Virus record (IMG/VR): IMGVR_UViG_3300027747_002579
Span: 43,672 to 107,671 of that record
Strand: one strand, 5' to 3'
Length of the DNA: 64,000 nt
Source of the DNA: a virus
The position numbers and the translations under genes were made by a program. The notes under the pieces are model-generated. The model was not told the DNA's origin, ran no database searches, and saw only the letters and a program-made list of their open reading frames with translations. How positions within the stretch are numbered: position 1 is the first letter of the stretch; each line of letters begins with the position of its first letter. This document shows positions 6,001 through 24,122 of the stretch, piece by piece.

Positions 6001-8180
6001 CAGGTCACTCATTATTTCAAAAAGCATTTATATATTTAAATGAACTTAATATAAAGAACTTAGACAAAGAAGATCAAGCGTTTGTTGGTGATGGTAAACT
6101 TAATTTCTTTAAAGAGAATGGTGATCCCAACTTTAATACAGTGAAAAAAGATGGACAAATACTAACCACTTTGTCTATGATAAAAGACCAAGCTGGAAAA
6201 TTCATTACAGATACTATAGGAATGTTTATTGATGGATATGTGGATATTGCTAATGGTCCATGGATTATGGAACTTGGTGCCACACCAAATGTTGCTCCCA
6301 CATTCTTGTTTCTTGTGAGAGCAGGGGTGCCTATCAAGACCATTGCATATTTTATAAACCAACCCATCATTCGTGACTATTTGAAATTGATGGAAACTGA
6401 AGGATTTTCTTGGTTGTTTGTTGATAAACTAATTGAAGAAATAAAATCTTCAGAAAAATATATAGTTTCTAAAGATGCAAACGTCACTCCTATTTCTCAA
6501 ATACCTAGCGACACAACGTTACTTGAAACAATAGGTAAGAAAACATTATCTGCTCAAGAAAAAACAGAACAGAAATATATACTTGATGAGTTTTTAAAAT
6601 ATGCAAAGATGGCAGATCAATTGTTTAATGTTACACAAGCAACAAACTTTGATACAGCAACAATTAACGATCCTATTCTTGTATTCAAGAAAATAGAACA
6701 AGTGAAGAAAGCTCAAAATTCTATAATAAGTTCTGTAGATGATGTTTTAGAAAGTTCATTCTTAGGAAACTTATTAGATACAATGAAGAAATTGAGAGAT
6801 GCTTTTGGTGAGATATTAATTTCTGATAAACAAGGATTGATGAGGAATGTAACAGAAAACATTCTTCTTCCATACATTAAAATGGATGATAGAGACTTTA
6901 CACAACTTGCTCAAAAACTTGTAAGTAATTTATTTGATTGGGCAGTGCAAGTGGGAGATGAGAAACTAAATTCAGAAATAAATAGAATTCTTCTTTCTAA
7001 AAAAGGAACAGCTTACCAAATGCAAGAATTTGCAAATAGTGTAAAAGCTAACCCTTTACACCCTTTGCACAATAATCAAGTGATAGAATTATTATTATCA
7101 AATGTTGCAGATAAAGACAATAAGCCTAACAATCTTAAAATTAAGGTGAAGGATAATAAAGTGTATAACCAAAACCAGATGATTTATTCTTTTGCAGAAA
7201 TTAAAGAATACCTAAACAGTAATGCAGGAAGAAAAGGACTTCCTTCTTATGATGATTTTGTAAAACTATCAGTGTTACAATCAGGGACATTGAATTCTCC
7301 AATATCATTTACATCACTAATTCCTTATGATGATTTCAAGAAATTATATGCAACAACAATTTCTAAATTACCATTCAGCAGCGATGTAAATATGTTTAAA
7401 AATCTTGATGTTTTCCAAAGAAACAATTGGAATAATTCAGAAATTGTTCCTAAAAAGAAAGCAAAATGGGTATTTAACGAGTCTTTTCAAAGTTTTAATT
7501 ACATAAATGATAATTTGAGATATAACGATTATTACAAGGACGTAGCAAACGCAATTAAAAACAATATTATTCCTGATGTTATAGCTCTTTCAACATTAAC
7601 ACAAGATGCTCATTTAGACATAGTTTCATATTCTTGGGAAAAACCATTAGTAGACCTACTCACTGAAGAAGAGTTAAAAGCCAATCCTGATGAATTTCAA
7701 AGAATAGCATTAGGAAGAAAGAAACAAAAAGAAATGAAGAGAAAAGCAGATTTTTCATACCTATCTAAAGGACTGTTCAAAAAGGTTTATCTTGCTCCCA
7801 ACGAACCTTACATGCTATTGGATGAAAAAAAGGGAGACAAGGGTAACAAGTTTGTTTACAAGATGATAAATGCTTGGGGAGATTCTTTCAGAGCAAATGA
7901 ATTCTATGATGTTCCAAGGATGTCTATTATTGATAACGGTTTTGAAAAAACAAGAGAAGTGAGTGATGCTGATATTATTAGTTATTTCACAGGCAACGTT
8001 TCTACAGAAGATACAATGTTTGATGGATTAACAGACTTCTCTGATGAAAGAAAACAAGAAATATTAACTAACTTTGGCAAGAAGCACAACATGACAAAAG
8101 AGCAATCTAAGTATTATATTAATTATGCTCTTCAGATAGACACACAAAAGAAAATCAACAAATTAAAAGAATGTTACTAA
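1..8180 (+). CDS. Giant virion-associated RNA polymerase (crAss-like, double-psi beta-barrel), with zincin-like N-terminal region; 5'-truncated by window
   Basis: Frame is open from position 3, so the gene starts upstream. Motifs RIPTQ (~4806) and GSDFDIDK (~4917-4940) are typical of crAss-like vRNAPs. HEVFE (~708) is a variant of the zincin HExxH motif. Confidence 0.9.
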   Translation, partial: TKDSQQHEILRLIKTGDALVKPMLTKGKWINHLIKTQPQDLYNFVDAELAALETSPIVKETAETLAARRLEELSNYYDTFGEEGDLLFQGIDTPSGIENTQEFKDAVKVIYDKYDKLLADLKETSPAEETEVTPISPSQQLTENEQQDISNELDNLDVSTDKREEARKKLKEELKRFEPENWEQLTKWLKKFFPNVPVYRVKNIITSIDGKEEVWGMFKDGAIYVYENAEIGTVYHEVFEAVWKMFSSPEEQKAIIDEFRQRKGTFIDRPTGETIKYSEATPQQIKEQLAEEFRDYILYKKIPAKPTYGKPFILKLFSDLVNFIKEFFTGNKAQINTANLFEKISTGHYNKPSLYTSALALANKGVIDIDSVFASNFSEFRLKGIRPNVVGDTLQQMTYSILYDFVQGNKSFFNISKLDKTVYEKIQKDVYNTFLVKLKTIREELKEQEKDKEKNKVKIDVLNNQFNELGSMYLKTKEQWDGMVEEHIEYLKPYNIEFEDEDKNEDKEGRGDYQDASTMDAFKKADGAIKLLLSTLVRGTLKDGKRETGESSIGGVTLLPLTEVFIKVKENVYTSRTPEEMIERIRKMALKDSNYRTLYKRLTKTEFITNTFNPQDLEKGHQLQLIQALWKVMKQQKPSVKNLYIFENGEIEVGDSNFSSQIREQRNEIEAVLQEKLRNSENQYYYYNEKSEYYVRKANYDSRNLGRTNEETLSNELNSFGISFTKEEILKIKENDSRKYNILKDAVEGLKTSISLAPELKAISSKYLDINKRLTQIAAVRVSLDNPEYSSTFFNVKGERVQTFIGENAMSSLFNTLSQIENLSELQGTNFEYLLTDAFSQNSRLLNEMFHPINNEDPNSGKKKVENYDDLLFTIGWQDGMINEQTGKNKQSSQLNYKERLIQELNLNLKGWFLNLVPGDASLEWMVFMGNFTSPESISKGDWTSVYSRFRSFLYSEIETSREDRSIVKLSKEQVEKGATQRDSKDLRFFKGILSESLHNELVNSTKSIAEIHFAYKDKIDEEVKKYIYDKAANEKATLTDYGIIGQRKEKDGKAGTYYANGLNFEDDQNVPIESIDSLILSNVINYTVANIDLHKLIYSDPYQYKDELKRTKLFNSPHQPLIGNSDGMNKAFSKFYNEGYEKGDVHWTEFESDILRSITYDDIRGVSDKGVWDEGDGGGKIIFKAYRQFRIRESNWSDDNELQYRYDVAWEKRYKNEQLPKEEQKPLSEKEQELLKNGNPGVADTYTATKPKMAGNKANGKSYNDVLLDKCALFPISFRVMMEINPTANALKLYNKMQREKIDYVIYKSGRKVGAEETNPVYTDKGDFDETPFKGVVNVPFSIISRQSETPSKESSKTKMGSQITKIGTTNFTEAGVPIDFADFNKSTKFSPERFLEWMNLTPEEKETRSPIHKELQNNKKLIDEMRNNNYKSLLKKFGIKEFGKKGEEKIYTIDDVKKTVKLLRKNLSSINNNMIDALEDFENGTTILEATNSYQQLRNVLFAIADKQVISPKITGAQLVQMSSDMLESVRAEKTTINGKTGYTSDVLKFYEDKDGQRVCEIMVRRWFDSDMSDKELMDYFNNNPEGQKQIAALAGIAYRIPTQNKNSIDVFRVAKFLPQEFRDVVIVPSELVHKVGSDFDIDKLFIYLKNIVTGRDGKPKLIEFLDDNNSTIEERYLNWIRSNANLDTRNYIKFLTKKSVQNLKSNFELVLSKIKADYKFIGKEEKEDLFQTSLETSKSNIEYEIFDQEAYLQELFDMGKKVFWRMSDETRGPFWEVRDFIRSRNIKGPDEIKRYLSLTIALLEDETTIEDDIIKLEGLEKIYSEELRVIGETNEIINRIKKEALDNFRKNKKVLSEALRVDRSAEFEESFDIYKNIKSQISLEAAEEIANIDGLYTFEDFKKLSKYEQNNIEALENAYISSLEVLTSHPLNYEKLTSPNSAKELQDLSIEIVNKLGLGAFDYTKTSNLLDRRFMSRIRHAFVTGKKAIGVAATTQTGHSLFQKAFIYLNELNIKNLDKEDQAFVGDGKLNFFKENGDPNFNTVKKDGQILTTLSMIKDQAGKFITDTIGMFIDGYVDIANGPWIMELGATPNVAPTFLFLVRAGVPIKTIAYFINQPIIRDYLKLMETEGFSWLFVDKLIEEIKSSEKYIVSKDANVTPISQIPSDTTLLETIGKKTLSAQEKTEQKYILDEFLKYAKMADQLFNVTQATNFDTATINDPILVFKKIEQVKKAQNSIISSVDDVLESSFLGNLLDTMKKLRDAFGEILISDKQGLMRNVTENILLPYIKMDDRDFTQLAQKLVSNLFDWAVQVGDEKLNSEINRILLSKKGTAYQMQEFANSVKANPLHPLHNNQVIELLLSNVADKDNKPNNLKIKVKDNKVYNQNQMIYSFAEIKEYLNSNAGRKGLPSYDDFVKLSVLQSGTLNSPISFTSLIPYDDFKKLYATTISKLPFSSDVNMFKNLDVFQRNNWNNSEIVPKKKAKWVFNESFQSFNYINDNLRYNDYYKDVANAIKNNIIPDVIALSTLTQDAHLDIVSYSWEKPLVDLLTEEELKANPDEFQRIALGRKKQKEMKRKADFSYLSKGLFKKVYLAPNEPYMLLDEKKGDKGNKFVYKMINAWGDSFRANEFYDVPRMSIIDNGFEKTREVSDADIISYFTGNVSTEDTMFDGLTDFSDERKQEILTNFGKKHNMTKEQSKYYINYALQIDTQKKINKLKECY

Positions 8181-8181
8181 T

Positions 8182-11100
8182 ATGGCATGTATAAATCCCA
8201 ACACCCCAGAATTTAAAGCAGCGTTAGAAAGAAATGGTGGCAATCCATTATTAGCTGAGATGGAATTAAGTGAGAAAGAAATTAAACCAGGAGTGGAAGA
8301 ATTATTCAATTCCTCTCCTGAGTTGGCTAATATAGGAACACAAGAACAATATTCTCAATACTTAGATAGTATATTTCCTGATAGTAAAGTAAAAGAAGTT
8401 TTATATCATATGACTTCTTATGATGGAAAAAAAGGAATAGAACAAAAAGGAAGATTTTTAAAACCTGGAGAAAAAGGTTATCAGAAAAGAGATTATGCAA
8501 CTACAGGAGGTATTTATTTTACAGATAATAATAGTTATGATGAAGATACAGAAATGTATGGTTCTCCTGTTACTGGTGCATATGGTTCAGCTTATGTATC
8601 AGCTATTCTAAATATTAAAAACCCACTCATTGATTTAACTAAAAGTTTTGGTGATATATCTAAAACAGAATTAAAAGATAATGATGGTTTTGTAGGTACA
8701 AATGAATCAAAAGAAATTGGCGTTCTTGAACCAGAACAAATACACATATTAGGAAATAAACAAGACATAGAAGGATTTAAAGAGTTTGTTAATAAAAAAG
8801 AAACAGCTCCTCTTCTTCAATTAGAGGAAGGACCTAAAAGCTCAAAAGCTTCCACTCAAACATTAAACAAAATAAAAGAGCTTGCTAAGAAAATAGGAGT
8901 GAGCATTCAGAGTCTTTCTGAATATGCAAAAAACAATCCTGATGTTAAAACATCTTCTATAAATGGATTGGCAGACTTAGTGAAATCAATTGTAGCAATT
9001 GCTGATGGAAAAGAAGACGTTGCTCTTACAGAAGAAATGGTGCACATTGCTACAGCAATGATAGAGCAAACCAATCCAACATTAATTACAGAAGCTATTT
9101 CTAAGATTGATAGATTCAAAATATACAAAAAAACATTAGACGCATATAAAGATAACAAGCACTATCAACTTCCTAACGGAAAACCTGACATACGCAAAAT
9201 AAAGAAAGAAGCTGTAGACAAACTAATTGTGGAAGTGATAATAAACAAATCAGAAGGCTCTACAGAATTTCCAGAATTAATGCAAGAAGAAAATGTTTCA
9301 TTTGTAAGAAAACTATGGAATAGAATTATAGATAAAATATTCTCTAAAGTGAAGGGTTCAAACATAAACATATTTGAACAAATAGGAGAAACAGTGTTAG
9401 AAGGAAACATTGAAGGACTTGCAAAAGATAAAGGTTTGACAGGCATATATTTGCAAACAGTGTCAGATAAACAAAAAGCTGTACAAGAAAGACTATTAAT
9501 AGACCAAGACAGAATAACAAAAGTTGTAGAAACTGCTTCTGTAGATCCAATGTTTTTAGACTCTGAAGACGCTAGTAATTTCTACAATATGAAAAATACA
9601 AGCGGTGTAGATGAGAGAGTGGTGAAGAGAGTGACAGACAGAGTGAAGGCTTGGTATAAGAAGAAGTTTGGAACAAAGGTGTTTAGTGAAGCAGAGAAGA
9701 AGTATAACAATATGTTAAGAGACTATGGTGTCAAAGGACACAATGATTTAGAAGAAATTCATTCTAGATTTTTTCATAAAGATGGTACACAAAAAACAAC
9801 AGCTTCTCCAAGACCTTCTAAATTCAATGTAGAAAGCGAAGATATTTATTTAAAGCTTGAAGAATATTACATAGATTTAATAAAGCTTTTAAAAAAACAA
9901 AACAATGGTGTTGTTCCTCTTGTCTTCTCTGAGGTGAAGGTTTATGACCCTAAAGAAAAAGAAGCAGGAACAATAGATTTTCTAGCAATAGACTCTAATG
10001 GAAAAGGACACATCCTTGATTGGAAGTTTATGAATATTAAAGGAGATGATGTTGCTTGGTATAAAAATGGTGCATTCGATATACAATTAGGAAGATATAA
10101 ACAAATGCTTCGTGATGTTTATGGAATAAAAGAATTTGGAATGATTAGAGCAATTCCTATCTCTATGGAATTCACTCTCTCCAACCCAAGAGATGTTAAA
10201 TCAGATTTGAAACTAAAAGGAATTGGTATTGGTAGTGCTGATTCTAGAAAAATAGAAGACATTAAATTAATGCCTATTTCTGAAAAAACAGAATCTACAG
10301 GATATTCTAAATTAGACAAGCTCATAAGCAATATGAATGCTTTGATGTCTAGCTATTCAAAAAAAGAAGTGACTTCTGAAGATGATAAACAGTTTAAAAT
10401 TGAAACGTTAGAGATATTAAGAAAGGCTATAAAGGTGGCACAAGCAACCAATAACTTAGTTCCAATAATTGATGTAATTGAAAAGATTAGAATAGAAGGA
10501 GAAAAGTTGTTAAATGATTACAACAGTAAATATAAAAATCTATCTCCTACAGACACTTCTGTCTCAAGAAGTGAAATAAATGATTTTTCAGAAAGGATGA
10601 GGTTATTTTACAATGCTTCTAATATTTTTACAGAAACAGGAAGACAATTGTCACAACTGATTTATGAAGAAGGGATGTTGGAAAAAGCTGTTTCTCCAGA
10701 AGAGAAAAAAAATGCAACAGAAAGAAAACAATTAGCAGATACACTAAAGAAACAATCTCAGGACATTGCAAACATGAGAGATGATATTAGAGATGAGAGT
10801 ATTGTGTTTGCAGATAAACAAATAGGAATACGAAATCTTATAACAGGACTTCCTAGTGCAGAAGCTGTATTAAAAGGACTAGGAGCTTTCTTCAGAGGAG
10901 CTTCAGACCTTCCTAATGCAGCAATTAGAGTTTTAGTAAAATTAACTTCTTCTGCCAAAGAAATTGCAGCAAAAGAGTCTTTCGATGAAGTGGAAGAGTT
11001 GATGAAAATAAGAAAGAAGATTGTTGATAGAGGTGGAGATGTTAGATCTTTTGTAAAGAAAATCTATAGAAAGAATGAAAAGAACGAAGTGGTTAATAAG

Positions 11101-13602
11101 TTAATTTCTAAACATTCTCCTGAGTTCTATAGTGTTATAGATGAATTGGCTGCAAAAGGAGGAGATAGAGAAAAACTATTAAATAACATAGACATAGATG
11201 TATATAGAAAGAAAGCTAAAGAGATTATTGACAAACAGGTGAAAAAAATAATGGAAGAGCGTTGGAGCTATGACGATGCTAAAGACAGTAAAGAAAAACA
11301 AAAAAGAGTGGAGGCTGTAGAAAAACTTTATGATATAGACAATCCAAATTTCTATGGATGGAACAATTGGATAGTTAAAGGTTCTCCAGCAAATAAATGG
11401 ATAACAAAAGAATATTTAGAAATACAAGCTGATGAAGATTTAAAAGCGTTGTATGAATTTATTATAAAAATAAACAATAAAGCAAAAGATGCTGGATACA
11501 TAAATACAGCAGCCACTTCATTTCTACCATTTATAAGAAAGGGAATGGCTGAAGCTCTTGCTTGGGATAGTCCTTTATCAGCTATACAAAAATGGAACGA
11601 TTCTCTTACGTTAAGACCAGGAGACGTAGGGTATGGAGAATACGATGAGTTTTCAGGAAAGTTAGAGAATTCAATTCCTAAATATTACACATATGATTTT
11701 ACAAGAAATGACGAAGGCGTGAATAACTTTTCTGAAGTGAGTGAAGATATTTTTAAAAATATGATAGTGTATCTTCAGCAAGTGAATAAGTATAAACATC
11801 TATCAGAAGTAGAAGAACAGTTACGACTTGTACGAGAAATAGAAGAATTTAAAGGACACATTCAAACTGATAGGTTTGGGAACGTAGTGATAGAAAACGG
11901 TAAGCCTAAAGTGATAGATGTTGAGAATTCAGAAAATACAAAACTTTATGAAAACTTTCTTAAAGTTTTATTGTATGAACAAAAATATCCACTATCTGAT
12001 TCAGATATTCCATTAAACGTTGGTAAAGTGTTGAATGGTGTTAAAGATGCAATAAATTCTCTTGTAGGAAAAGAAGTGTTTAAGAAAGATGAAAACCCAA
12101 AAGCTACATCATTGATGAAAGTGATGGAAGCTGCAAATAGAGGATTTCAAGTAAAAACTTTAGCTTTAGAAATTGTTCCTGGGGCAAGTAACTTTTTTGG
12201 AGGTGTTGTACAAATTCTCACACAATCAGGAGCCTATTTTAATAAAAATGAACTTAGAAAGAATTTAGGAAAATCATTAAAACAGAAGTTTGAAAGCGAA
12301 GCAGATAAAGAAATGTTTGTTCAATTAATCAACACGTTCATGCCTTTGAAAGATAGTCCTATTTATGAGATGTATAAAAAAGCAGGAATGAGTAGTCTTA
12401 CAAGAGACAATCTTGGAGACAAGTTAATGATCACTATGAGATTTCCTGAGCAAGTGTTAGAAGAAAGTGTATTTCTATCTTTATTAGACAATGCAATGGT
12501 AGAGAATGGAGAAATTGTAAACATACAAGATTATGTAAAAGCTAAATATCCAAATAGATCAAATTCTTCTACAGAATGGAAAGCTGCAAATGAAGCTATT
12601 AAGAAAGAAGTGGAACTATTAAAAGAAACAAGGTCTATAACAGCAACAAAAAAACTTGTAAATGGTAAATTAGAAATACCAGGACTTGATTTAACCAATC
12701 TATTAGAAATACAAAGACTTACAACATTAACTAAACGCACTGTATCAAATGCTTTAGGAGGAGTTTCTGGAGAAAATGTTAATTTGGCAGGAATGAATTT
12801 GTGGACAAGTAGCATGATGTTATTTCATAATTGGATTCCTAAATTAACAGATACACGGTTTTCTGAATTTAAAAGAGTGAGTGATGATTTTAATGTAAGA
12901 ATAAATGACGATGGTGTTTCTGAAGGAGATAGATATGATGTAGGAAGAATTAGACTTCTTCTCACTGTATTAGGAACTTCTATTAGAGATAGGTCTGCAA
13001 ATGTAAGTAACATTATTGCAATGAATGACAAAGGAGTAGAAACAATAAATGAACTATTTGAAAAATATAGAAAAGAATATGAGGATAGAACAGGACAAGT
13101 GTTGAATATGACAAAAGATGATTTTGTAGATTTAGTGAGAAAAAATCTAAGAAATCAGTTAAAAGAATTATTAACACTAGCTATTCTATTAGGAATTATG
13201 TTCTCTTTTGGATTTATTGCTCCAGACGATGATGATGATAAAGCTTCTAAAAATGCATTCAGACTTGCACAAAAAGTTATTAATAAATTTACAGATGAGT
13301 TGAGTTTCTTCTATAACCCAATGAATTATGAAAAATTATTCAGCGGGTCAATGTTTCCTGCATTAGGGTTGATTTCAGACTTTGAAAGATTTATAACAAA
13401 CTTCATAATGGAAATTACAGGAATTGATGTATCTCATCTAGACAGTTCTTCAGAGAAGGTGAGAAAGAAAGCACAACCAATCAAATATCTTATGAAAATG
13501 TTTCCTGTATCAAAAGCTGCATTTACATGGCTTTCTGTATTAAATTCTGATTTTGCTGAAGAGTTTGATGTTACAATACAGAAAGAAAACACAATTAGAT
13601 AG
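8182..13602 (+). CDS. Large polyvalent virion cargo protein: ART-like cassette, degenerate zincin, PD-(D/E)XK nuclease-like domain, C-terminal TM segment
   Basis: YH...GIYFT...YG...LNIKNP (ART-PolyVal-like); EEMVH; AGTIDFL...ILDWK...QL..Y nuclease motif; hydrophobic LLTLAILLGIMFSFGFI; directly follows the vRNAP gene. Confidence 0.7.
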   Translation: MACINPNTPEFKAALERNGGNPLLAEMELSEKEIKPGVEELFNSSPELANIGTQEQYSQYLDSIFPDSKVKEVLYHMTSYDGKKGIEQKGRFLKPGEKGYQKRDYATTGGIYFTDNNSYDEDTEMYGSPVTGAYGSAYVSAILNIKNPLIDLTKSFGDISKTELKDNDGFVGTNESKEIGVLEPEQIHILGNKQDIEGFKEFVNKKETAPLLQLEEGPKSSKASTQTLNKIKELAKKIGVSIQSLSEYAKNNPDVKTSSINGLADLVKSIVAIADGKEDVALTEEMVHIATAMIEQTNPTLITEAISKIDRFKIYKKTLDAYKDNKHYQLPNGKPDIRKIKKEAVDKLIVEVIINKSEGSTEFPELMQEENVSFVRKLWNRIIDKIFSKVKGSNINIFEQIGETVLEGNIEGLAKDKGLTGIYLQTVSDKQKAVQERLLIDQDRITKVVETASVDPMFLDSEDASNFYNMKNTSGVDERVVKRVTDRVKAWYKKKFGTKVFSEAEKKYNNMLRDYGVKGHNDLEEIHSRFFHKDGTQKTTASPRPSKFNVESEDIYLKLEEYYIDLIKLLKKQNNGVVPLVFSEVKVYDPKEKEAGTIDFLAIDSNGKGHILDWKFMNIKGDDVAWYKNGAFDIQLGRYKQMLRDVYGIKEFGMIRAIPISMEFTLSNPRDVKSDLKLKGIGIGSADSRKIEDIKLMPISEKTESTGYSKLDKLISNMNALMSSYSKKEVTSEDDKQFKIETLEILRKAIKVAQATNNLVPIIDVIEKIRIEGEKLLNDYNSKYKNLSPTDTSVSRSEINDFSERMRLFYNASNIFTETGRQLSQLIYEEGMLEKAVSPEEKKNATERKQLADTLKKQSQDIANMRDDIRDESIVFADKQIGIRNLITGLPSAEAVLKGLGAFFRGASDLPNAAIRVLVKLTSSAKEIAAKESFDEVEELMKIRKKIVDRGGDVRSFVKKIYRKNEKNEVVNKLISKHSPEFYSVIDELAAKGGDREKLLNNIDIDVYRKKAKEIIDKQVKKIMEERWSYDDAKDSKEKQKRVEAVEKLYDIDNPNFYGWNNWIVKGSPANKWITKEYLEIQADEDLKALYEFIIKINNKAKDAGYINTAATSFLPFIRKGMAEALAWDSPLSAIQKWNDSLTLRPGDVGYGEYDEFSGKLENSIPKYYTYDFTRNDEGVNNFSEVSEDIFKNMIVYLQQVNKYKHLSEVEEQLRLVREIEEFKGHIQTDRFGNVVIENGKPKVIDVENSENTKLYENFLKVLLYEQKYPLSDSDIPLNVGKVLNGVKDAINSLVGKEVFKKDENPKATSLMKVMEAANRGFQVKTLALEIVPGASNFFGGVVQILTQSGAYFNKNELRKNLGKSLKQKFESEADKEMFVQLINTFMPLKDSPIYEMYKKAGMSSLTRDNLGDKLMITMRFPEQVLEESVFLSLLDNAMVENGEIVNIQDYVKAKYPNRSNSSTEWKAANEAIKKEVELLKETRSITATKKLVNGKLEIPGLDLTNLLEIQRLTTLTKRTVSNALGGVSGENVNLAGMNLWTSSMMLFHNWIPKLTDTRFSEFKRVSDDFNVRINDDGVSEGDRYDVGRIRLLLTVLGTSIRDRSANVSNIIAMNDKGVETINELFEKYRKEYEDRTGQVLNMTKDDFVDLVRKNLRNQLKELLTLAILLGIMFSFGFIAPDDDDDKASKNAFRLAQKVINKFTDELSFFYNPMNYEKLFSGSMFPALGLISDFERFITNFIMEITGIDVSHLDSSSEKVRKKAQPIKYLMKMFPVSKAAFTWLSVLNSDFAEEFDVTIQKENTIR

Positions 13603-13634
13603 CCATATTATCTTGTATAGATTTTAGACAGACA

Positions 13635-13663
13635 TTGTAATTCTCTATAAATAACTATTTTTG
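13635..13663 (+). promoter_or_regulatory. Bacteroidota-type promoter (TTG-N18-TATTTTTG)
   Basis: TAnnTTTG at 13656-13663 with TTG at 13635-13637, just upstream of ORF 13671. Confidence 0.6.
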
Positions 13664-13670
13664 TATTCTT

Positions 13671-14432
13671 ATGAACATTAATTGTGGTAATATTGGTTGT
13701 CCAGATATAATAGATTCTTCTTGTGTATTTTATACAGGACAGAATTTATTATACATAGGTGTTAACACTAATGATACAATACAAACTTCTCTCCAGAAGA
13801 TAGATGCAAAAATACAATCTGTATTAGCAAACAGCACATTACAAGGTTCAGGAACAGCGAATAGAATAGCTAAATGGGCAGCTTCCACCAACCTGACAAA
13901 TTCTAACATAACAGATGATGGCACCACTGTAACAATCACTAGTGCAGCTACAATTAGTGGAGTTTCTATTTTAAATAACATTCTCACTATTAATAAAGTG
14001 CTCCCTAGTGGTTCTACAATATTTAAAATAAATAGTGGAGCTTCTTTTTTAGGAAGTCAATTTGAATTTCAAAACTTTCTAGATGCAGGATTATTAAAAA
14101 TAGGATATTTTGGCAATGCTGGTAATAGAATAGAAATAGATGGAGGATCAAATAACACTGCTCCCACTATAAAATTCTATGAGAAAATTGGTTCTTCAGC
14201 TCCTACATTAAATACTTGGATTAATTCTAATACACTTGGTGGATTTACATATTTCAATGCAGGAAATTTTCTGATTGGTAAAACAACAAATGGAAATTAT
14301 AAATTTGATTTGAACGGAAACATACGGGTGAGTGGAATTGTAGAATATGCATCAAACGCAGCAGCTTTATCAGCAGGACTATTAGCTGGAGCTTTCTATA
14401 GAACAGGAGAATTTTTAAAAGTGGTTTATTAA
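13671..14432 (+). CDS. Tail/virion fibre-associated protein
   Basis: Gly/Ser/Thr/Asn-rich; GSGTxNxIxKW repeat shared with the next ORF; Cys-rich N-terminus. Confidence 0.6.
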   Translation: MNINCGNIGCPDIIDSSCVFYTGQNLLYIGVNTNDTIQTSLQKIDAKIQSVLANSTLQGSGTANRIAKWAASTNLTNSNITDDGTTVTITSAATISGVSILNNILTINKVLPSGSTIFKINSGASFLGSQFEFQNFLDAGLLKIGYFGNAGNRIEIDGGSNNTAPTIKFYEKIGSSAPTLNTWINSNTLGGFTYFNAGNFLIGKTTNGNYKFDLNGNIRVSGIVEYASNAAALSAGLLAGAFYRTGEFLKVVY

Positions 14433-14444
14433 AAACAAAACAAA

Positions 14445-15839
14445 ATGCCAAAACAAATAGGATGGAGCAATGAGAGTAATCTCCTCTATCAAATCTCTCA
14501 ACAAATAACAAGGCTAATAAATGTAACAGGTACAAATGGTGGAGGGTCTATTACAGGATCTGGTACAACAAATTACATTCCTAAGTGGACATCTTCTTCA
14601 TCATTGAACAATAGTGTTATTTATCAATCCTCTACAGGTAATATAGGAATAGGCACTACAACACCTTCTCAAAAATTAGATGTTAATGGTAATGTTACAG
14701 CTACATATGTTATTGCAGTTAATGAATTTTATGGCAGCAGTATTAGAGTGAATGGGTTTTATGCAAACACAATAGCTTATATGCCATTTTACTCAAACAT
14801 ATCTCCTTATGGAGAAATAATGAGGGTAAATAATAATGGTTCATTATGGATTAACAGGACAACAGATGATGGATCTGGAGCTAAGTTGCAAGTGAATGGT
14901 AATATAAGTACGCCTAATAATATTTCTTCATTTTTAAATGCAACAACTTTTACATTAAGTAATACTTACATGGGATATGCTGGTGGTAATATACAATTTG
15001 CCAAAAGCGATTATGGAACAAGAACGATGACCATTTTTGATTCAACAGGCAATGTTTTAATTGGAAGTGGAACATCAGAAATAAACACAGGATATAAGTT
15101 ACAAGTTGATGGTGGTTTTATAAGTAGATTAGGAGGACCAAGCTTTGCCGTTTTAAATTATATTGGTTCAGCAACTTTATATGGTGGTTATGGTGATTTT
15201 ATAACAAATACTGATAATTATTTTGTAAGAGCAGACGGTTTAAATGTAGTTCATAAAATACCTTCTACTAATGGATTTATGCTATTCAACACTTCAACTG
15301 GAACTGCTATGAAATTGTTAGATAGTGGTACTTTTTTAATCAACAGAACAACAGATGATGGAACAGGTTCAACATTACAAGTGAATGGTGGAATTTCTCA
15401 AGCTGGAGCAAATAATTATAATTATTTTGCATCAAAAGTGTTGATAGGTACAACTACTCCAAGTGCTGGATTAATGACTGTTGCAGGCGATATATACCCT
15501 AGTGCAAACAATACGTATGAATTAGGTAAAACTAATAATTTGTGGTTAGCAATAAATACATCAAATTATGTTAATTATGGTTCTACGAATTCGAATTATT
15601 TTGCATCTGAAGGACATAAATTTAATGTTGATTTTGTTTCACCAGTATTAACAATTACAAGTAATAAAAATGTATTAATAGGTACAACAGCAAATAACGG
15701 TCGAAAATTAGTAGTAGCTGGACAACAAGAATGGATAACGACAGTTGGTACTGGTGTACATACAACAAGCGGAAATCACCTTCCTATTTGGGTAAATGGT
15801 GTTCAATATTGGTTAGCATTATTAAATCCTGTAGTATAA
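14445..15839 (+). CDS. Tail fibre / receptor-binding protein
   Basis: GNIGIGTTTPSQKLDVNG-type repeats; INRTTDDG..LQVNG duplicated internally. Confidence 0.75.
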   Translation: MPKQIGWSNESNLLYQISQQITRLINVTGTNGGGSITGSGTTNYIPKWTSSSSLNNSVIYQSSTGNIGIGTTTPSQKLDVNGNVTATYVIAVNEFYGSSIRVNGFYANTIAYMPFYSNISPYGEIMRVNNNGSLWINRTTDDGSGAKLQVNGNISTPNNISSFLNATTFTLSNTYMGYAGGNIQFAKSDYGTRTMTIFDSTGNVLIGSGTSEINTGYKLQVDGGFISRLGGPSFAVLNYIGSATLYGGYGDFITNTDNYFVRADGLNVVHKIPSTNGFMLFNTSTGTAMKLLDSGTFLINRTTDDGTGSTLQVNGGISQAGANNYNYFASKVLIGTTTPSAGLMTVAGDIYPSANNTYELGKTNNLWLAINTSNYVNYGSTNSNYFASEGHKFNVDFVSPVLTITSNKNVLIGTTANNGRKLVVAGQQEWITTVGTGVHTTSGNHLPIWVNGVQYWLALLNPVV

Positions 15840-15858
15840 ATTTAAATATTAAAATAAA

Positions 15859-16185
15859 ATGGTAAACATTCAACCCGTAGTTTTTCCAATTGTTGGCACG
15901 GCAACAAAACTTTCAGTGACAGTTTTAGGATTTGCAACTAATGCAAAAACATGTGGCACTTATTATGCTTTATTGACAGACGATAATGTAAAAGTAATTG
16001 AAGGCAATTATTATCTCACTGAGGCAGAATTTACAGCGTGGGGAGTAGATAATTCATATATCGATGACATTGTAGCATCACATTTAAATGTGGTGATTGT
16101 TCCAGAATCTATGGATGATGACGTAGTGGATAATGGTGGAGGCGGTGTTCAATCTGCTACATTAGGTGCTCCAAACTTAAATTAA
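15859..16185 (+). CDS. Putative tail fibre assembly/chaperone protein
   Basis: Small ORF directly after the fibre gene. Confidence 0.45.
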   Translation: MVNIQPVVFPIVGTATKLSVTVLGFATNAKTCGTYYALLTDDNVKVIEGNYYLTEAEFTAWGVDNSYIDDIVASHLNVVIVPESMDDDVVDNGGGGVQSATLGAPNLN

Positions 16186-18275: not shown

Positions 18276-18410
18276 ATGATCAGTAAACAAATAGGCTGGA
18301 GTCAAGAAGCAAATCTTCTCTACGAAATTAGCAACAAGCTGGAAAGATTAATACAAGTGAGTGGAAGTCCTTCAACAACTACATCCACCACCACTACGAC
18401 AGCACCTTAA
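18276..18410 (+). CDS. 44-aa microprotein: tail-fibre-like N-terminal module plus Ser/Thr-rich tail
   Basis: Translated by hand: MISKQIGWSQEANLLYEISNKLERLIQVSGSPSTTTSTTTTTAP. The N-terminus matches ORF 14445 (KQIGWSNESNLLYQISQQITRLINVTG). Confidence 0.85.
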   Translation: MISKQIGWSQEANLLYEISNKLERLIQVSGSPSTTTSTTTTTAP

Positions 18411-18433
18411 CAAACATAAACCAACAACTACAT

Positions 18434-19024
18434 ATGAAAGAGTTAGTATTTATTTGCGAAACATGGAAGCGTTGTCCAGGGTATGAATCTTCTTATGAAG
18501 TTAGTACACTTGGGAATGTTAGAAGTATTGACAGAATATCTGGAAATAGACGTGGAGTGATTAAGAGTAAATTACTAAAATCTTATATTAATAAAAAAGG
18601 ATATTTAGAAGTAAGATTGTATAAAAATTCTAAGCACATTTTTAAAATAATACATAGATTGATTGCTAAAGCTTTTTTACCAAATGAAAACAAACCACAA
18701 GTCAATCATATAGATGGTAATAAGTTAAACAATAGAGTAGACAATCTTCAATGGGTTGATAATTCAGAAAATCAACTACATGCTTATAAATTAGGATTAC
18801 AACCTAGTAGAGCTGGTGAGAACAATGTTAAAGCAAAAATTAAAGATAAAGATGTAACTTTATTAAAAGAGTTATATAACTCTGGTAAAACTATTGCTGA
18901 AGTTTCTAATATAACAAAAATAAGTGTAAGTTCAATTAGAGCAATTATTTATGGAAATACTTGGAAATCTAATACAACAGCAATTATAAAAAGAGATGAT
19001 AGATTTAAACCAACAACAGTATGA
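18434..19024 (+). CDS. NUMOD4-HNH homing endonuclease
   Basis: WK..PGYE..YEVSTLGNVRS (NUMOD4); HRLIA...VNHIDGNKLNN...NL (HNH); C-terminal HTH-like segment. Confidence 0.92.
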   Translation: MKELVFICETWKRCPGYESSYEVSTLGNVRSIDRISGNRRGVIKSKLLKSYINKKGYLEVRLYKNSKHIFKIIHRLIAKAFLPNENKPQVNHIDGNKLNNRVDNLQWVDNSENQLHAYKLGLQPSRAGENNVKAKIKDKDVTLLKELYNSGKTIAEVSNITKISVSSIRAIIYGNTWKSNTTAIIKRDDRFKPTTV

Positions 19025-20031
19025 TTAAAGAATTAAAGTTTTTGTGCTCGCAGCCAGATGATTCGTATTATAAATGGCAAACACATCTATGGCTAGAGAG
19101 TCTTAAGAAAATAGGAAAGAGTGAACAAGCTATTGTATTAGTTTACACTCCCGCAGAAAGGCAATACAATACAGAATGGGACGAATTAAAAGAACTCTAT
19201 CCAGAAGCAACATTTGGTTTCTATAGAGATGAAGATGGTGTATCAGACTTTATTCCAATTTATATTCCAGTGTTGCGTCCTTACACATTAATGAGATGGT
19301 TCAAAGATCATCCAGAGATGAAAGACAAAGCCATTTTCTATTGTGATTGTGACATTGTGTTTACAGAGAATTTCAACATCGATGCTTACATAAATGATGA
19401 TGTGTGTTATCTGTCTGACACAAACTCTTACATAAACGCTTCATATTTTGATAGCAAGAAAAATGATGTTCTACAGGACAAACAAGAACTATACAACACA
19501 AGAGACGTATTAAACGAACTCACATCTCTTATAGGAATAAATAGACAAATAGCTGAAGCAAATAATTTACATTCAGGAGGAGCACAATATCTTCTGAAGA
19601 ACATAGATTATAAGTTTTGGCAGAAAGTGTTTAGTGATTGTATTCTTATTAGAAGATTTTTGTTAAACATTAACGGACAATTCTTTGAGAGTGAGAACAA
19701 AGGATTTCAAAGTTGGTGTGCTGACATGTGGGCTGTCTTGTGGAACCTTTGGTATAAAGGATACACAACACAAGTGGTGAAAGAAATGGACTTTGCATGG
19801 GCAACTGACCATATATCAAGAATGGATTCTATAGGACTGTTTCATAATGCAGGAATATCCAATACAGATATGGGACATTACAAAGCATTCTATAAAGGAA
19901 AATATATACATGGTGTCTCTCCATTCAGTGATTTAGATGAGGTGTATAACAACGAAGAGAGTAAGAAGTATTGTACACATTATTATGTCAGTCAGTTGGT
20001 AGAATTGAAAAACAAATACAATTTAAAATAA
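19021..20031 (+). CDS. Glycosyltransferase resembling plant HPAT/SERGT1 (GT95/GT96) protein O-glycosyltransferases
   Basis: Colinear motifs YYKWQ, YIPVLRPYTLMRWF, DCD (DxD), GGAQY, WCADMWA. Confidence 0.65.
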   Translation: MIKELKFLCSQPDDSYYKWQTHLWLESLKKIGKSEQAIVLVYTPAERQYNTEWDELKELYPEATFGFYRDEDGVSDFIPIYIPVLRPYTLMRWFKDHPEMKDKAIFYCDCDIVFTENFNIDAYINDDVCYLSDTNSYINASYFDSKKNDVLQDKQELYNTRDVLNELTSLIGINRQIAEANNLHSGGAQYLLKNIDYKFWQKVFSDCILIRRFLLNINGQFFESENKGFQSWCADMWAVLWNLWYKGYTTQVVKEMDFAWATDHISRMDSIGLFHNAGISNTDMGHYKAFYKGKYIHGVSPFSDLDEVYNNEESKKYCTHYYVSQLVELKNKYNLK

Positions 20032-20036
20032 ATAAA

Positions 20037-20438
20037 ATGCAATTAGACAACAAATTAAAAGCGTTCGTTAGATATGATGGATCAGAAAGAATCGTTCCTG
20101 GTTCTCTCATTCTTAGAAAAAACAAGCCTAAAGTGGGCAATTGGAAGCAAGTGTCTTCAAACTATTGTTGTGATGGCATAGGTATTAATTACACTCCTGG
20201 TAGCTTAACTATTGCAAATGTTGATTTGACATTAACGTGCTCTAGTGGAAAATCTATTGTTGTAAATACAAATACAGCATCCACTAACATGGTGACATTG
20301 TTAGCAGCATTAAACACTTCTGCAGGATATTTAGGTGTATTTACATCTCCTGATGGAGCAACTGTAAATTTTGTAGTGAACACATCTGTAGCAAGTACAT
20401 TGTGTTATGGAGCCACTTTATCGTTCTCTATAGCGTAA
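20037..20438 (+). CDS. Putative virion structural/decoration protein
   Basis: ATG at 20037; KAFVRYDG..RIVPGSL N-terminus, then a beta-rich Ser/Thr domain. Confidence 0.5.
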   Translation: MQLDNKLKAFVRYDGSERIVPGSLILRKNKPKVGNWKQVSSNYCCDGIGINYTPGSLTIANVDLTLTCSSGKSIVVNTNTASTNMVTLLAALNTSAGYLGVFTSPDGATVNFVVNTSVASTLCYGATLSFSIA

Positions 20439-20448
20439 AAAATAAAAA

Positions 20449-20868
20449 ATGAAATCAATATTTCCAAAAGAAATGCTAGGAGAGGGAATGAACAATTCCC
20501 TTTCTCTAGATAAGATAAAAGCAAAGCTTAATTACTTTGAGCTTCAAGTGCATGAATTGCATTGGCAGACAAAAGGATTTGCAGAACACGACGCATTAGG
20601 AAAACTCTATGATGGTGTTTTTGATTTCAAAGATGAAATTGTAGAAAAGATAATGGGCTATTCAGGAATAAGAACAAAAGCTATGCCTGTAGAACCCATC
20701 AAAGACTATTCTATAGGAATATCTGAACAAGTGGTAAATGATTTAATATCATTTGCAAAACAACTAGAACTCTTTGGCTCTGCAAATAACATGCCTGACA
20801 TAGAAAATGTAGCACAATCTCTTTCTGGACTTGCTGCTCAAACCAAATACAGATTAACTCTATCTTAA
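20449..20868 (+). CDS. Ferritin/Dps-like protein
   Basis: HW..KG...H..L..LY......DEIVE ferroxidase-type pattern. Confidence 0.75.
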   Translation: MKSIFPKEMLGEGMNNSLSLDKIKAKLNYFELQVHELHWQTKGFAEHDALGKLYDGVFDFKDEIVEKIMGYSGIRTKAMPVEPIKDYSIGISEQVVNDLISFAKQLELFGSANNMPDIENVAQSLSGLAAQTKYRLTLS

Positions 20869-21447: not shown

Positions 21448-21609
21448 ATGAAAAAAGCAATAAAGCAATTTCAAGCAGGTGGTGTTGCAAGCAAATCTCC
21501 TAAAGCTCCATTAGTAGATCCAAAAGGAGCATTCACAAAAGTGCAAAAGAGAACATTAGCTAATAAGAAAATGTCTACAAAAATGTCTAAAATGTCTAAA
21601 AAGAAATAA
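21448..21609 (+). CDS. Small Lys-rich protein (53 aa)
   Basis: MKKAIKQFQAGGVASKSPK...MSKKK, read by hand. Confidence 0.7.
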   Translation: MKKAIKQFQAGGVASKSPKAPLVDPKGAFTKVQKRTLANKKMSTKMSKMSKKK

Positions 21610-21610
21610 C

Positions 21611-21775
21611 ATGGCAACAGACAAAAAGTGGATACAGAAGGCAGTCAAAACTATGCGTACAGATAAACCTTGTACAGGATCTAAGTTTGGATCTAAAACT
21701 TGTCCTCCAGGATCTAAGCGTTATAATTTAGCTAAAACATTCAAAGCCATGGGAAGAGCAAGAAAAGGAAAATAA
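21611..21775 (+). CDS. Small Lys-rich protein (54 aa)
   Basis: MATDKKWIQKAVK...CTGSKFGSKTCPPGSKRYNLAKTFK..., read by hand. Confidence 0.75.
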   Translation: MATDKKWIQKAVKTMRTDKPCTGSKFGSKTCPPGSKRYNLAKTFKAMGRARKGK

Positions 21776-21903
21776 TGAAAAAGAAAATAACAGACGTTTG
21801 GAGCGATGTTAAAAAATCTATGGTTTCTCCTAAAGAAGAAAACTTTATGAAAAAACAAAAGAGAAAACTCTCCAAAATAAAACCCATAAAGAAACAAAAA
21901 TGA
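21775..21903 (+). CDS. Small Lys-rich protein (42 aa)
   Basis: TAATG overlap; MKKKITDVWSDVKK... Confidence 0.6.
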   Translation: MKKKITDVWSDVKKSMVSPKEENFMKKQKRKLSKIKPIKKQK

Positions 21904-22049
21904 AAAAGATGATTAAGAGGGCAGATGGTTCTACATCTCAACATGGTCTTTGGGATTCTATTCGTGAAAACAAAGGCAGTGGAAAGAAGCCCACAAAAGC
22001 TATGTTAACACAAGAGAAGAAAATAAAAGCAAAAGCTAAAAAGAAATAA
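21900..22049 (+). CDS. Small Lys-rich protein (49 aa)
   Basis: ATGA overlap; MKKMIKRADGSTSQHGLWDSIR... Confidence 0.7.
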   Translation: MKKMIKRADGSTSQHGLWDSIRENKGSGKKPTKAMLTQEKKIKAKAKKK

Positions 22050-22051
22050 TA

Positions 22052-22363
22052 ATGGCTTACATTAAGAAGTCTGGTCCTTGGAATCCACAGAAAGCTGAAG
22101 CCTATGTAGGTAAAGGTGTTCTAAAGAACGGAGGAAATGTAAAAGTGAGTGCAGGTGGTGAGAAGCATGTTGTATATAAAAAAACAAGTGCTACAGGAAT
22201 AGGCAAGGGTAAGAAAGGTGATATTATGGTAAACCATCCTACAAAAGACAAAGGAAAATGGGACACTATAGACCTCACACAAAAATCAAAAGCTAAAACT
22301 ATTAAACAAGGAGTGGCTTCTGTTAAGAAGTGGCACAAAGAACATCCTTACAAAAAGAAATAA
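22052..22363 (+). CDS. Basic hypothetical protein
   Basis: Lys/Gly-rich, 103 aa. Confidence 0.7.
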   Translation: MAYIKKSGPWNPQKAEAYVGKGVLKNGGNVKVSAGGEKHVVYKKTSATGIGKGKKGDIMVNHPTKDKGKWDTIDLTQKSKAKTIKQGVASVKKWHKEHPYKKK

Positions 22364-22364
22364 C

Positions 22365-22631
22365 ATGGCAACTGTTAAAAAAACACACAAAACACCTGCA
22401 TGGACCCGCTCTGAAGGTAAATCAAAATCAGGAGGATTGAATGCTAAAGGAAGAGCTTCTTACAACAAAGCTACAGGAGGACATTTAAAACCCCCACAAC
22501 CAGAGGGTGGTCCAAGAAAGAAATCATTTTGTAGTAGAATGTCAGGAATGAAGAAGAAGCTTACAAGTTCTAAAACTGCTAATGATCCTAACAGCAGAAT
22601 TAACAAAAGTCTTCGTAAATGGAAGTGCTAA
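22365..22631 (+). CDS. Basic phage protein, DUF6321-like
   Basis: AW.R.EGK...GGLN.KGR.SY...RKKSFC.RM...WKC pattern. Confidence 0.65.
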   Translation: MATVKKTHKTPAWTRSEGKSKSGGLNAKGRASYNKATGGHLKPPQPEGGPRKKSFCSRMSGMKKKLTSSKTANDPNSRINKSLRKWKC

Positions 22632-22650
22632 AAAACAAATAATAATAATT

Positions 22651-23070
22651 ATGAAAACTGTTAAGAAATCAGCAGCTAAGAAAATGGTTAAGAAAGCTGC
22701 TCCTAAAATGATGGCAAAGCCTGCCCCTAAAATGCCTATGCAAGCTCCTCAACAAGAAGCTCCTATGATGAAAATAGGTGGTAAGATGCCTAAGGCTAAT
22801 TTTGGTCAAAATTTATTAAAAGGACCAATAGGAATGGGTATTGACATGATTAAGAACAATAACAAACCTGCTACACCTCCTGCTAATTCAATGATGAAGA
22901 AGGGTGGAACAATGAAGAAAGCTAAAGCAGGTGGATCATTTCCTGATCTTAACAAAGATGGTAAAATCACCAAAGCTGATGTATTAGTTGGACGTGGTGT
23001 TATCAAGTCTCCTAAGAAGACAATGAAGACTGGTGGCACAATGAAGAAATGTAAAATGGGTTGTTACTAA
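22651..23070 (+). CDS. Lys/Met/Pro-rich protein with repeated xKxGG and an EF-hand-like loop
   Basis: ATG at 22651; MKIGG, MKKGG, AKAGG, MKTGG; DLNKDGKITKAD. Confidence 0.7.
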   Translation: MKTVKKSAAKKMVKKAAPKMMAKPAPKMPMQAPQQEAPMMKIGGKMPKANFGQNLLKGPIGMGIDMIKNNNKPATPPANSMMKKGGTMKKAKAGGSFPDLNKDGKITKADVLVGRGVIKSPKKTMKTGGTMKKCKMGCY

Positions 23071-23222
23071 TGACATACGGAAAAACAAACAAGAAGAACA
23101 AAGCTCCAAAGGTGGCTATTCCTAAGAAGAATAAACCATTCTCAGAGACAAAAACCACAGACGATAAATCATCACGAACCTCTCCCATGCAATTGTTAAA
23201 AAAGAAAAGACTTTCTAAATAA
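23070..23222 (+). CDS. Small Lys-rich protein (50 aa)
   Basis: TAATG overlap; MTYGKTNKKNKAPK...LKKKRLSK. Confidence 0.6.
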   Translation: MTYGKTNKKNKAPKVAIPKKNKPFSETKTTDDKSSRTSPMQLLKKKRLSK

Positions 23223-23252: not shown

Positions 23253-24122
23253 TTATAATAAGTGTAGATAATCAGAGTGATTTCCCCAATAGTCTTGATT
23301 TAAATATAAATCATGAGTGTTATATATACTGTAGTGTGATGTGAAATGTTTGCCATGATTTATGTGCACGGCTGGATTTATACATTTCCATTTTCTTCTC
23401 TTTATGTACTGAGGCTCAATCATTCCACTGTTTGTAATAAGAGCATTTGCAAGAATTTCTTCACAATGTGTAATTGCATCAGCAAACTTCATAGTCATTT
23501 GATGAAATGGCTCATGGTCTGCTGTCTTGTCTTGCCATCCCATTTTATTAATTCCCATGTAGTTCATGTTAGTGATCACTTCACCATTATTAAATTCTGG
23601 ATAGTCAAAATATCCTTCTGGATAGAGAACATCATGTTCTAAAAAAGAAACATATTCATAATTATGAATTTCTCTAGCAGCATATAAGAGCTGCATAATT
23701 TGCAACAATTGATTTAAATGAGAAGAAGTTTTTGTCCAAGCTATATATTCTACAAAAGGATTTTCTGGCTCGTGTTGCCACATACAAGTTAATATGTCAG
23801 CTTTTCCTTCTGCTGCTTTTTTAATTGATGCCAATGAAGCTCTTATTGCAGGATATATTTCAGGAGTGTTGTTGTTAGAATAAAATATTCCAAGTTTGTT
23901 TTTTGTAGAAAGTGGAAAAACAAGAAGATCTCCCTCTCTTATAGACAAGTTGTGAATTTTTTCATCATGTTCTATTTCTACATTAAGATATTTTACAGTT
24001 CCTGTAGAAGGATCTCCTATTATGTTATTATTAGAATGAGTGATTAATATATTATTCTTCATTCTTTTTTGCATTACATCTGTACAGTCTACATCACCAT
24101 ACGTAGCTTTTATTATTTTCAT
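23253..24122 (-). CDS. Glycosyltransferase (GT-A-like) with N-terminal lectin-like domain
   Basis: N-terminal IIKATYG...GDP..GTVKYL (SUEL/DUF3395-like); FLEHDVLY (ExD) motif; C-terminal H.NH. Confidence 0.55.
   Translation of the reverse strand: MKIIKATYGDVDCTDVMQKRMKNNILITHSNNNIIGDPSTGTVKYLNVEIEHDEKIHNLSIREGDLLVFPLSTKNKLGIFYSNNNTPEIYPAIRASLASIKKAAEGKADILTCMWQHEPENPFVEYIAWTKTSSHLNQLLQIMQLLYAAREIHNYEYVSFLEHDVLYPEGYFDYPEFNNGEVITNMNYMGINKMGWQDKTADHEPFHQMTMKFADAITHCEEILANALITNSGMIEPQYIKRRKWKCINPAVHINHGKHFTSHYSIYNTHDLYLNQDYWGNHSDYLHLL

Follow-up and report, generated by a model that had tools for sequence, protein, structure and literature searches.

Locus organisation

The locus analysed here spans positions 18,276 to 20,031 of a 64-kb window (the whole stretch of DNA under study, 64,000 nucleotides), which is the right-hand part of the 107,671-bp IMG/VR viral record IMGVR_UViG_3300027747_002579, and carries the genes of a microprotein with a threonine (Thr)-rich end, of a homing endonuclease of the HNH type and of a predicted glycosyltransferase, hereafter the enzyme. 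The recurrent pairing of this enzyme with runs of Thr suggests a phage-encoded system for the glycosylation of virion proteins. The record has 32.8% G+C and a completeness rating of 93%, and its source is, by sequence match, a freshwater/environmental crAss-like phage, because a 1724-residue protein encoded outside the window matches the Crassvirus muzzle family PF25731 (3.7e-30); its relatives are metagenomic viral contigs of 90-118 kb. The features on which the argument depends, given with their lengths in amino acids (aa), are the following.

14445..15839, + strand: fibre-like protein, 464 aa, without poly-Thr, with N-module A at residues 3-30 (14451-14534)
18276..18410, + strand: microprotein gene, ATG start, 44 aa, from the translation of the open reading frame (ORF), with 90 distinct homologous genes in related contigs
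18285-18365, + strand: N-module A of the microprotein, residues 4-30, common to fibre-like proteins
18366-18407, + strand: Ser/Thr tail of the microprotein, residues 31-44, with an A-P terminus
18418..18457, + strand: left copy of a duplication of ~40 nucleotides (nt), namely the leader and the opening 8 codons that the enzyme gene had originally, now the HNH start MKELVFIC
18434..19024, + strand: free-standing homing endonuclease, NUMOD4 + HNH_3 + HTH, from Pfam and PHROG matches
19007..19047, + strand: right copy of the duplication, namely the present enzyme leader and start MIKELKFLC, the leader copy also encoding the HNH C-terminus KPTTV
19021..20031, + strand: predicted soluble GT-A glycosyltransferase, 336 aa, with a DxD motif at D109/D111, from an AlphaFold2 model and membership of phrog_4417

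Linkage of poly-Thr proteins to the enzyme gene in crAss-like relatives

Viral loci were sampled through the enzyme (80), the microprotein (78) and the downstream Dps-like gene (76), providing 149 distinct enzyme genes, 132 with enough upstream sequence and 125 with both flanks. ORFs with at least five consecutive Thr residues were counted as poly-Thr ORFs, and ORFs were classed as near within 750 nt of the enzyme and as far beyond 1.5 kb. The co-occurrence of the transferase with poly-Thr ORFs, which an earlier note on this DNA had proposed as a check, is found across related phages, with such an ORF near the enzyme in 115 of the 125 loci, and extends to distant phage groups (see below). Of the 767 near ORFs, 232 are poly-Thr ORFs; among the 3391 far ones there are 11.

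The typical partner is a microprotein of 42-70 aa ending ~25 nt upstream of the enzyme. Specifically, a poly-Thr microprotein of at most 70 aa precedes the enzyme in 88 of the 132 loci: in 75 of them no more than 60 nt separate its end from the start of the enzyme, in 10 an insert of ~600 nt lies between the two, and in 3 the distance is another one; a longer poly-Thr protein occupies the upstream position in 18 loci, and none is present there in 26. When the search starts from the microprotein, the enzyme follows directly downstream wherever the sequence continues, including 8 loci in which it is only 28-29% identical.

Moreover, many relatives have one or two ORFs of 59-70 aa directly downstream of the enzyme, composed of an N-module B, unrelated to module A (consensus LKAFVRFDGSGRIV.GSLILRK.KPKVGKW..YECC), and of a T7-8-x-A-P tail (for example L180:6781-6984, L229:4147-4574 and L221:6598-6983). 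The corresponding position in the window is occupied by a longer protein with the same kind of head.

20037..20438, + strand: N-module B protein, 133 aa, with a C-terminal domain of ~90 residues, without poly-Thr (LKAFVRYDG..RIVPGSLILRK.KPKVGNWK)

Because two unrelated heads bear one tail on both sides of the enzyme, the enzyme would be concerned with the tail and not with the head; judged from sequence, this combination of two heads and a common tail is the strongest local argument for such a role of the tail.

Distant phages and negative controls

A tblastn search detects the enzyme in 77 records of isolated phages, mostly phages of Firmicutes. In all nine isolated phages that were examined, genes for poly-Thr proteins are found no more than a few kb from the enzyme gene and in most cases adjoin it, and in the seven siphoviruses of Firmicutes the enzyme gene stands inside the head/tail gene module. 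The tagged proteins are as follows.

Enterococcus phage phiFL1A: major tail protein gp50, ending in ~20 Thr/Ser; gp45
Phage 4995_1: major capsid protein
Lactobacillus phage iLp84: capsid protein, orf8 and major tail protein
Staphylococcus phage PT1-1: tail tube protein (T16)
Clostridium phage FA88: ORF11 and ORF18
bIL285: orf50
SAC12B: upstream protein with (TTVxP)n repeats
Planchet: major tail protein, with a weak, mixed tail
Chryseobacterium phage MA9V-3: two poly-Thr proteins, one immediately upstream of the enzyme

Six phages whose major tail protein has 50-60% identity to gp50 of phiFL1A (three of Streptococcus and three of Lactobacillus plantarum) served as controls. The enzyme is absent from the flanks in all six, and no match is present in the five that were searched over the whole record; likewise, none of the six has a Thr run at the ends of its major tail and capsid proteins, and the alignment of their tail proteins with gp50 stops exactly where the Thr tail begins. 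The pairing of tag and enzyme in 9 of 9 phages against 0 of 6 is unlikely by chance, the phages not being fully independent. Among crAss-like phages, Cellulophaga phage phi14:2 gives no enzyme match when the phage collection is searched by tblastn and contains no homopolymeric Thr run in 100 kb, against five poly-Thr ORFs in the present genome.

Fold and family of the enzyme

The product of ORF 19021-20031 matches phrog_4417, a phage protein family of unknown function, over its full length (E = 3.4e-52, residues 5-319 on profile positions 1-286 of 293). The family is large: one collection contains 2170 of its proteins at E <= 1e-5, and a second one contains 774 cluster representatives at E <= 0.001. 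The AlphaFold2 model, built on a 75-sequence alignment, has a predicted local distance difference test score (pLDDT) of 97.7 and a predicted template modelling (TM) score of 0.94 and forms a single Rossmann-like alpha/beta/alpha domain, so that the protein is predicted with very high confidence to be a glycosyltransferase of the GT-A fold. The claim of the earlier note that this ORF encodes a sugar transferase is thus supported at the level of fold by AlphaFold2 and Foldseek and by the DxD motif, whose D109 and D111 are invariant in the 75 relatives and in 46 further, partly fused, ones. The invariant or near-invariant columns of the 75-member alignment include Y81, R86, D109, D111, G186, G187, Q189, Q230 and D235, and H275 and K292 are also invariant.

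The nearest solved folds are of the retaining GT8 type, namely glycogenin, LgtC, the catalytic domain of UGGT and pneumococcal GlyE. The GT-A fold is shared with these enzymes, from which the phage protein differs by an identity of 9-10% and by ~80 extra residues. Sequence comparison with Pfam and the PDB names no family: the Pfam scan returns noise at E <= 0.1, no Glyco_transf_8 (GT8) match is present in the enzyme at that threshold or in its 75 relatives, the PDB gives no match to the single query and only noise to the 75-member profile, and the neighbours in a viral structure library are uncharacterised family members and giant-virus GT8-like proteins. The structural comparison proposed in the earlier note gives a divided answer, since WbbM, a lipopolysaccharide (LPS)/O-antigen enzyme, ranks first by Foldseek E-value but glycogenin ranks first by Z, and it is not decisive because enzymes directed at proteins and enzymes directed at LPS both occur in the GT8-like class.

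Neither the enzyme sequence nor the model, which begins with a beta strand at residue 5, shows an apparent membrane segment, and the enzyme should therefore act in the cytoplasm. Longer relatives are fused to GT2, GT6, GT7C, GT25, GT29 (sialyltransferase-like), Gly_transf_sug, methyltransferase or radical-SAM/SPASM domains, with the enzyme family mostly in the N-terminal position (e.g. P0138, P0169, P0200, P0239, P0259, members of alignment A4); by its domain content, this architecture is that of multi-step glycan builders.

The earlier note had also derived from short motifs a kinship with plant hydroxyproline O-arabinosyltransferases (HPAT, GT95) and with the peptidyl-serine galactosyltransferase SERGT1 (GT96). 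The motifs themselves (YYKWQ, YIPVLRP, CDCD, SGGAQ, WCADMWA) are present, and they fall on invariant or near-invariant columns of the 75-member alignment. In favour of the kinship, 22 of 30 language-model feature neighbours from the ESM Atlas come from clusters with PF23452 (HPAT) on 10-58% of their members, and among the structure neighbours, with TM scores of 0.67-0.70, one bacterial protein (TM 0.70) combines PF23452 with PqqD, a domain that binds peptide leaders. The profile itself gives no above-cut-off match, and the best folds are of the GT8 type, which is not a class specific for peptides. PF23452 does not match the window enzyme at E <= 0.1, matches 2 of the 75 relatives below the cut-off of 23.9 bits (best E = 0.012) and, at E <= 0.01, matches none of the 46 relatives that are more distant; a six-frame search of the genome with it is empty at E <= 10, a blank that shows little, given that the control genomes are empty too, and a search of the same style for GT2 (PF00535) is empty over the whole genome. 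The link to HPAT is thus a weak lead to a distant relationship, not a sign of membership. HPAT enzymes, which are plant and algal, and SERGT1 act on peptide acceptors and have colinear short motifs in common with the phage enzyme, which differs by lacking an apparent membrane anchor and by a proposed acceptor that is Thr instead of hydroxyproline or serine. HPAT enzymes are characterised by a type II anchor in the membrane and by UDP-arabinofuranose as the donor.

The microprotein and its N-terminal module

The 44-aa ORF was described in the earlier note as beginning like a tail-fibre N-terminus and ending in a Thr-rich stretch, and both parts of this description hold. A pairwise BLASTP comparison pairs its residues 4-31, in an ungapped alignment, with residues 3-30 of the fibre-like protein of 464 aa (14445-15839), 18 of 28 positions being identical and 24 of 28 positive (E = 1e-11). 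The C-terminus of the microprotein is SPSTTTSTTTTTAP. At the DNA level the two copies of N-module A are only ~74% alike; therefore, the microprotein is not a recent copy of the fibre start. The tail is encoded by TCA ACA ACT ACA TCC ACC ACC ACT ACG ACA, and this mixture of Ser/Thr codons rules out a slippery simple repeat at the DNA level as the source of the Thr run. Across the homologues the Thr codons are also mixed (ACT 388, ACA 335, ACC 197, ACG 20), and the ratio of nonsynonymous to synonymous substitution rates (dN/dS) is ~0.19 over the first 30 codons, so the gene is kept under purifying constraint at the protein level.

The 90 distinct module-A microprotein genes encode 42-69 aa and conserve the start, the length class and the A-P terminus. 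Their consensus is M-A-I-P-S-R-Q-I-G-W-S-x3-N-L-L-W-Q-I-S-K-Q-L-E-x-L, followed by one or two units of T7-8 + x-A/P-P. In relatives, module A also heads proteins with Collagen triple-helix repeats, Lcl_C or Laminin_G_3 (LamG/ConA-like) domains. Phage fibres and adhesins typically contain collagen, Lcl C-terminal and LamG/ConA-like domains, which agrees with the observation of the earlier note that the microprotein begins like the tail fibre. Moreover, in two loci (L013 and L063) the poly-Thr run is a stalk that joins module A to the Lcl_C or LamG head. Compared with these proteins, the microprotein is probably a fibre reduced to its anchor and stalk, and module A, by its company, may dock on the particle. 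A trimer prediction with three copies of the microprotein scored 0.14 against a mark of 0.42, a value that speaks neither for nor against oligomers.

The HNH gene between microprotein and enzyme

The endonuclease gene, with Pfam matches to NUMOD4 and HNH_3 (6.5e-13 and 1.4e-10), has orthologues of 53-71% identity at the same site in ~15 further contigs and is absent from most. Alignment with the HNH-less microprotein-enzyme junctions of four loci (L080, L113, L020, L081) reveals the duplication flanking it, in which the HNH start MKELVFIC derives from the enzyme start, MKDLKFIC. The start of the enzyme gene is intact, ORF 19021-20031 overlapping the endonuclease stop in ATGA. In relatives without the HNH gene, the microprotein stop lies 19-33 nt ahead of the enzyme start. 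Because the HNH gene is flanked by the duplicated enzyme leader and its site is variably occupied, the adjacency of the microprotein gene and the enzyme gene is inherited, and the statement of the earlier note that the microprotein directly precedes ORF 19021, if the HNH gene is left out of account, is upheld.

Other poly-Thr proteins and a second putative glycosyltransferase

The genome contains five poly-Thr ORFs, namely the microprotein and four outside the window, and the window encodes a second putative glycosyltransferase on the opposite strand.

L156:1586-2782, 4959-5273, 9779-14950 and 14968-16017: four proteins outside the window with long Thr/Ser runs, namely a 399-aa protein, a 105-aa ORF, the muzzle protein (PF25731) and a 350-aa protein matching PHROG families described as virion structural protein
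23253..24122, - strand: second putative glycosyltransferase, 289 aa, with an N-terminal beta domain of ~80 aa and a GT-A domain with an invariant E-H-D
20449-20868: Dps-like gene

The AlphaFold2 model of the 23253-24122 protein (pLDDT 88.7) has Foldseek matches to BoGT6a, TarP and SpsA (E 4e-6 to 2e-5, TM 0.40-0.55). The protein is conserved in the clade and may be an enzyme that extends a glycan.

Downstream of the Dps-like gene, the + strand carries tightly packed small ORFs (21448-23222) of 42-162 aa that are very rich in Lys. Upstream of the fibre-like gene lie two giant ORFs, 3-8180 (>2700 aa) and 8182-13602 (1806 aa), whose position is reminiscent of the genes that are annotated as virion RNA polymerase in Cellulophaga phage phi14:2.

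Proposed mechanism and alternative explanations

The reading proposed for these observations is that the phage encodes an O-glycosylation of poly-Thr tags on its virion proteins, the microprotein being a minimal tagged fibre, and its probability is put at about 0.6. The elements on which it builds, namely the fold, the DxD motif, the synteny, the co-occurrence and the purifying selection, are all computed. Late in infection, a cytoplasmic, metal-dependent GT-A enzyme would move a sugar from a nucleotide-sugar to the Thr residues of tags on phage structural proteins, each tag unit consisting of T7-8 followed by x-A/P-P. In this genome, the acceptors would be the 44-aa microprotein and the four poly-Thr proteins encoded elsewhere, including the muzzle protein. 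The N-module of ~28 residues would hold the microprotein at the same sites of the particle as the fibre-like proteins, and since its distal part would be nothing more than a glycosylated Thr stub, the result would be a mucin-like glycan brush, which the GT-A protein of 23253-24122 may extend. Beyond the computed results, we infer that sugar is transferred to Thr, that the microprotein docks on the virion and that the glycan has a role, which could be shielding, adhesion or stiffening.

Several observations weigh against this reading. No poly-Thr ORF lies within 750 nt of the enzyme in 10 of the 125 loci, and in a few loci (L062:5870-5971, also L091 and L101) the microprotein directly upstream of the enzyme has 33 aa with module A and no Thr tail. 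The ~150 crAss-like loci are related, so their synteny does not amount to 150 independent events, and independence is provided by ~10 phage lineages. Among the isolated phages, the tagged protein of bIL285 is 2 kb from the enzyme, and the tail of Planchet is short and mixed. The fold class, as judged from the model, includes the LPS/polysaccharide transferases LgtC and WbbM and thus does not name the acceptor. Lastly, the poly-Thr runs could remain unmodified and act as flexible linkers, which is their place in L013 and L063, where a run connects the N-module to a lectin-like head.

Some of these points feed the alternative that survives best, in which the enzyme glycosylates another target, such as LPS, teichoic acid or phage DNA, and the poly-Thr runs are unmodified linkers of the same variable fibre cassette. 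The presence of LPS/O-antigen enzymes (LgtC, WbbM) among the nearest solved folds, the clear linker position of poly-Thr before the Lcl_C or LamG heads and the 10 loci without a nearby poly-Thr ORF all fit this explanation. However, the pairing recurs in siphoviruses of Firmicutes, in which the tags are C-terminal and have nothing to link, and the poly-Thr tails are missing from close relatives that lack the enzyme; moreover, the enzyme has no apparent membrane segment in sequence or model, and its gene stands within a late/structural module and not among early or DNA-metabolism genes. An acceptor of this other kind is accordingly considered unlikely.

A further alternative retains the glycosylation and removes it from the virion: the microproteins would be free glycopeptides, glycan primers or products akin to ribosomally synthesised and post-translationally modified peptides (RiPPs), with the N-module as the leader, released at lysis. 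The fusion of some bacterial structural neighbours of the enzyme to PqqD is what such a leader would lead one to expect, as are the very small size of the proteins, the conserved N-modules of their two families, the tail that both families have in common and the self-priming of a glycan by glycogenin, the best structural match. Yet both N-modules head larger proteins with fibre-type domains, some of them without poly-Thr (14445, 20037 and the collagen-repeat relatives), and therefore an assembly module fits better than a leader recognised by the enzyme; furthermore, the tags in phages of Firmicutes are found on capsid and tail-tube proteins devoid of such modules. The probability of a non-virion product is hence judged to be low, below that of a different acceptor.

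Lastly, that the 44-aa ORF, short, unannotated and adjacent to a mobile endonuclease gene, is no gene or the dead remnant of a fibre gene cut by the HNH insertion is highly improbable, the truncation being contradicted by the 90 distinct intact versions of 42-69 aa, most of them in contigs without the HNH gene, by their conserved start, length class and A-P terminus, by the dN/dS of ~0.19 and by the position of the insertion, which lies 3' of the microprotein stop within the leader of the enzyme gene.

If the glycosylation of virion tags is extended beyond this phage, a broader picture follows, which is tentative and has somewhat less than an even chance of being correct: phages of at least two bacterial phyla would share a portable T7-8-x-A/P-P tag that a dedicated enzyme family turns into mucin-like glycan, and crAss-like freshwater phages would have reduced the tagged protein to free-standing "glycan fibres" made of an anchor and a glycosylated stub.

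Implications

To our knowledge, mycobacteriophages are the only phages whose particles have been shown experimentally to be glycosylated. Should the proposed system exist, particle glycosylation would occur widely, both among environmental crAss-like phages and among phages that infect lactic acid bacteria, enterococci, staphylococci or clostridia, and would draw on one uncharacterised enzyme family and a very simple sequence tag. It would have a bearing on phage adhesion to mucus or host glycans and on the antibody recognition of therapeutic phages. In the broader picture of free-standing glycan fibres, the functional tip of the appendage would be a carbohydrate and not a protein domain. A tag of ~15 residues might also permit site-specific protein glycosylation in bacteria. 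The small size of the partners, a substrate of 44 residues and an enzyme of 336, makes the idea cheap to test.

Comparison with known systems

A full-text literature search retrieved no paper linking this enzyme family, poly-Thr tails or microproteins to phage glycosylation. The closest precedent is found in mycobacteriophages, in which, according to the statement in PMC11652166 that cites Freeman et al. (2023, Cell Host Microbe), phage-encoded glycosyltransferases O-glycosylate capsid and/or tail proteins, producing a glycan shield. The system proposed here differs in the phylum of the host and in its predicted enzymes, which belong to the uncharacterised family phrog_4417. It differs as well in the homopolymeric Thr tag and in microproteins composed of an anchor plus a tag, which the same search found in no paper.

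A more distant likeness concerns the acceptors. In mucins and in the serine-rich-repeat adhesins of bacteria, dense O-glycans on low-complexity Ser/Thr tracts give rise to an extended, protease-resistant brush. The likeness is one of principle only, and no homology is claimed; unlike these proteins, the phage tags are very short (7-20 residues) and are carried by proteins of a virus particle that are made in the bacterial cytoplasm.

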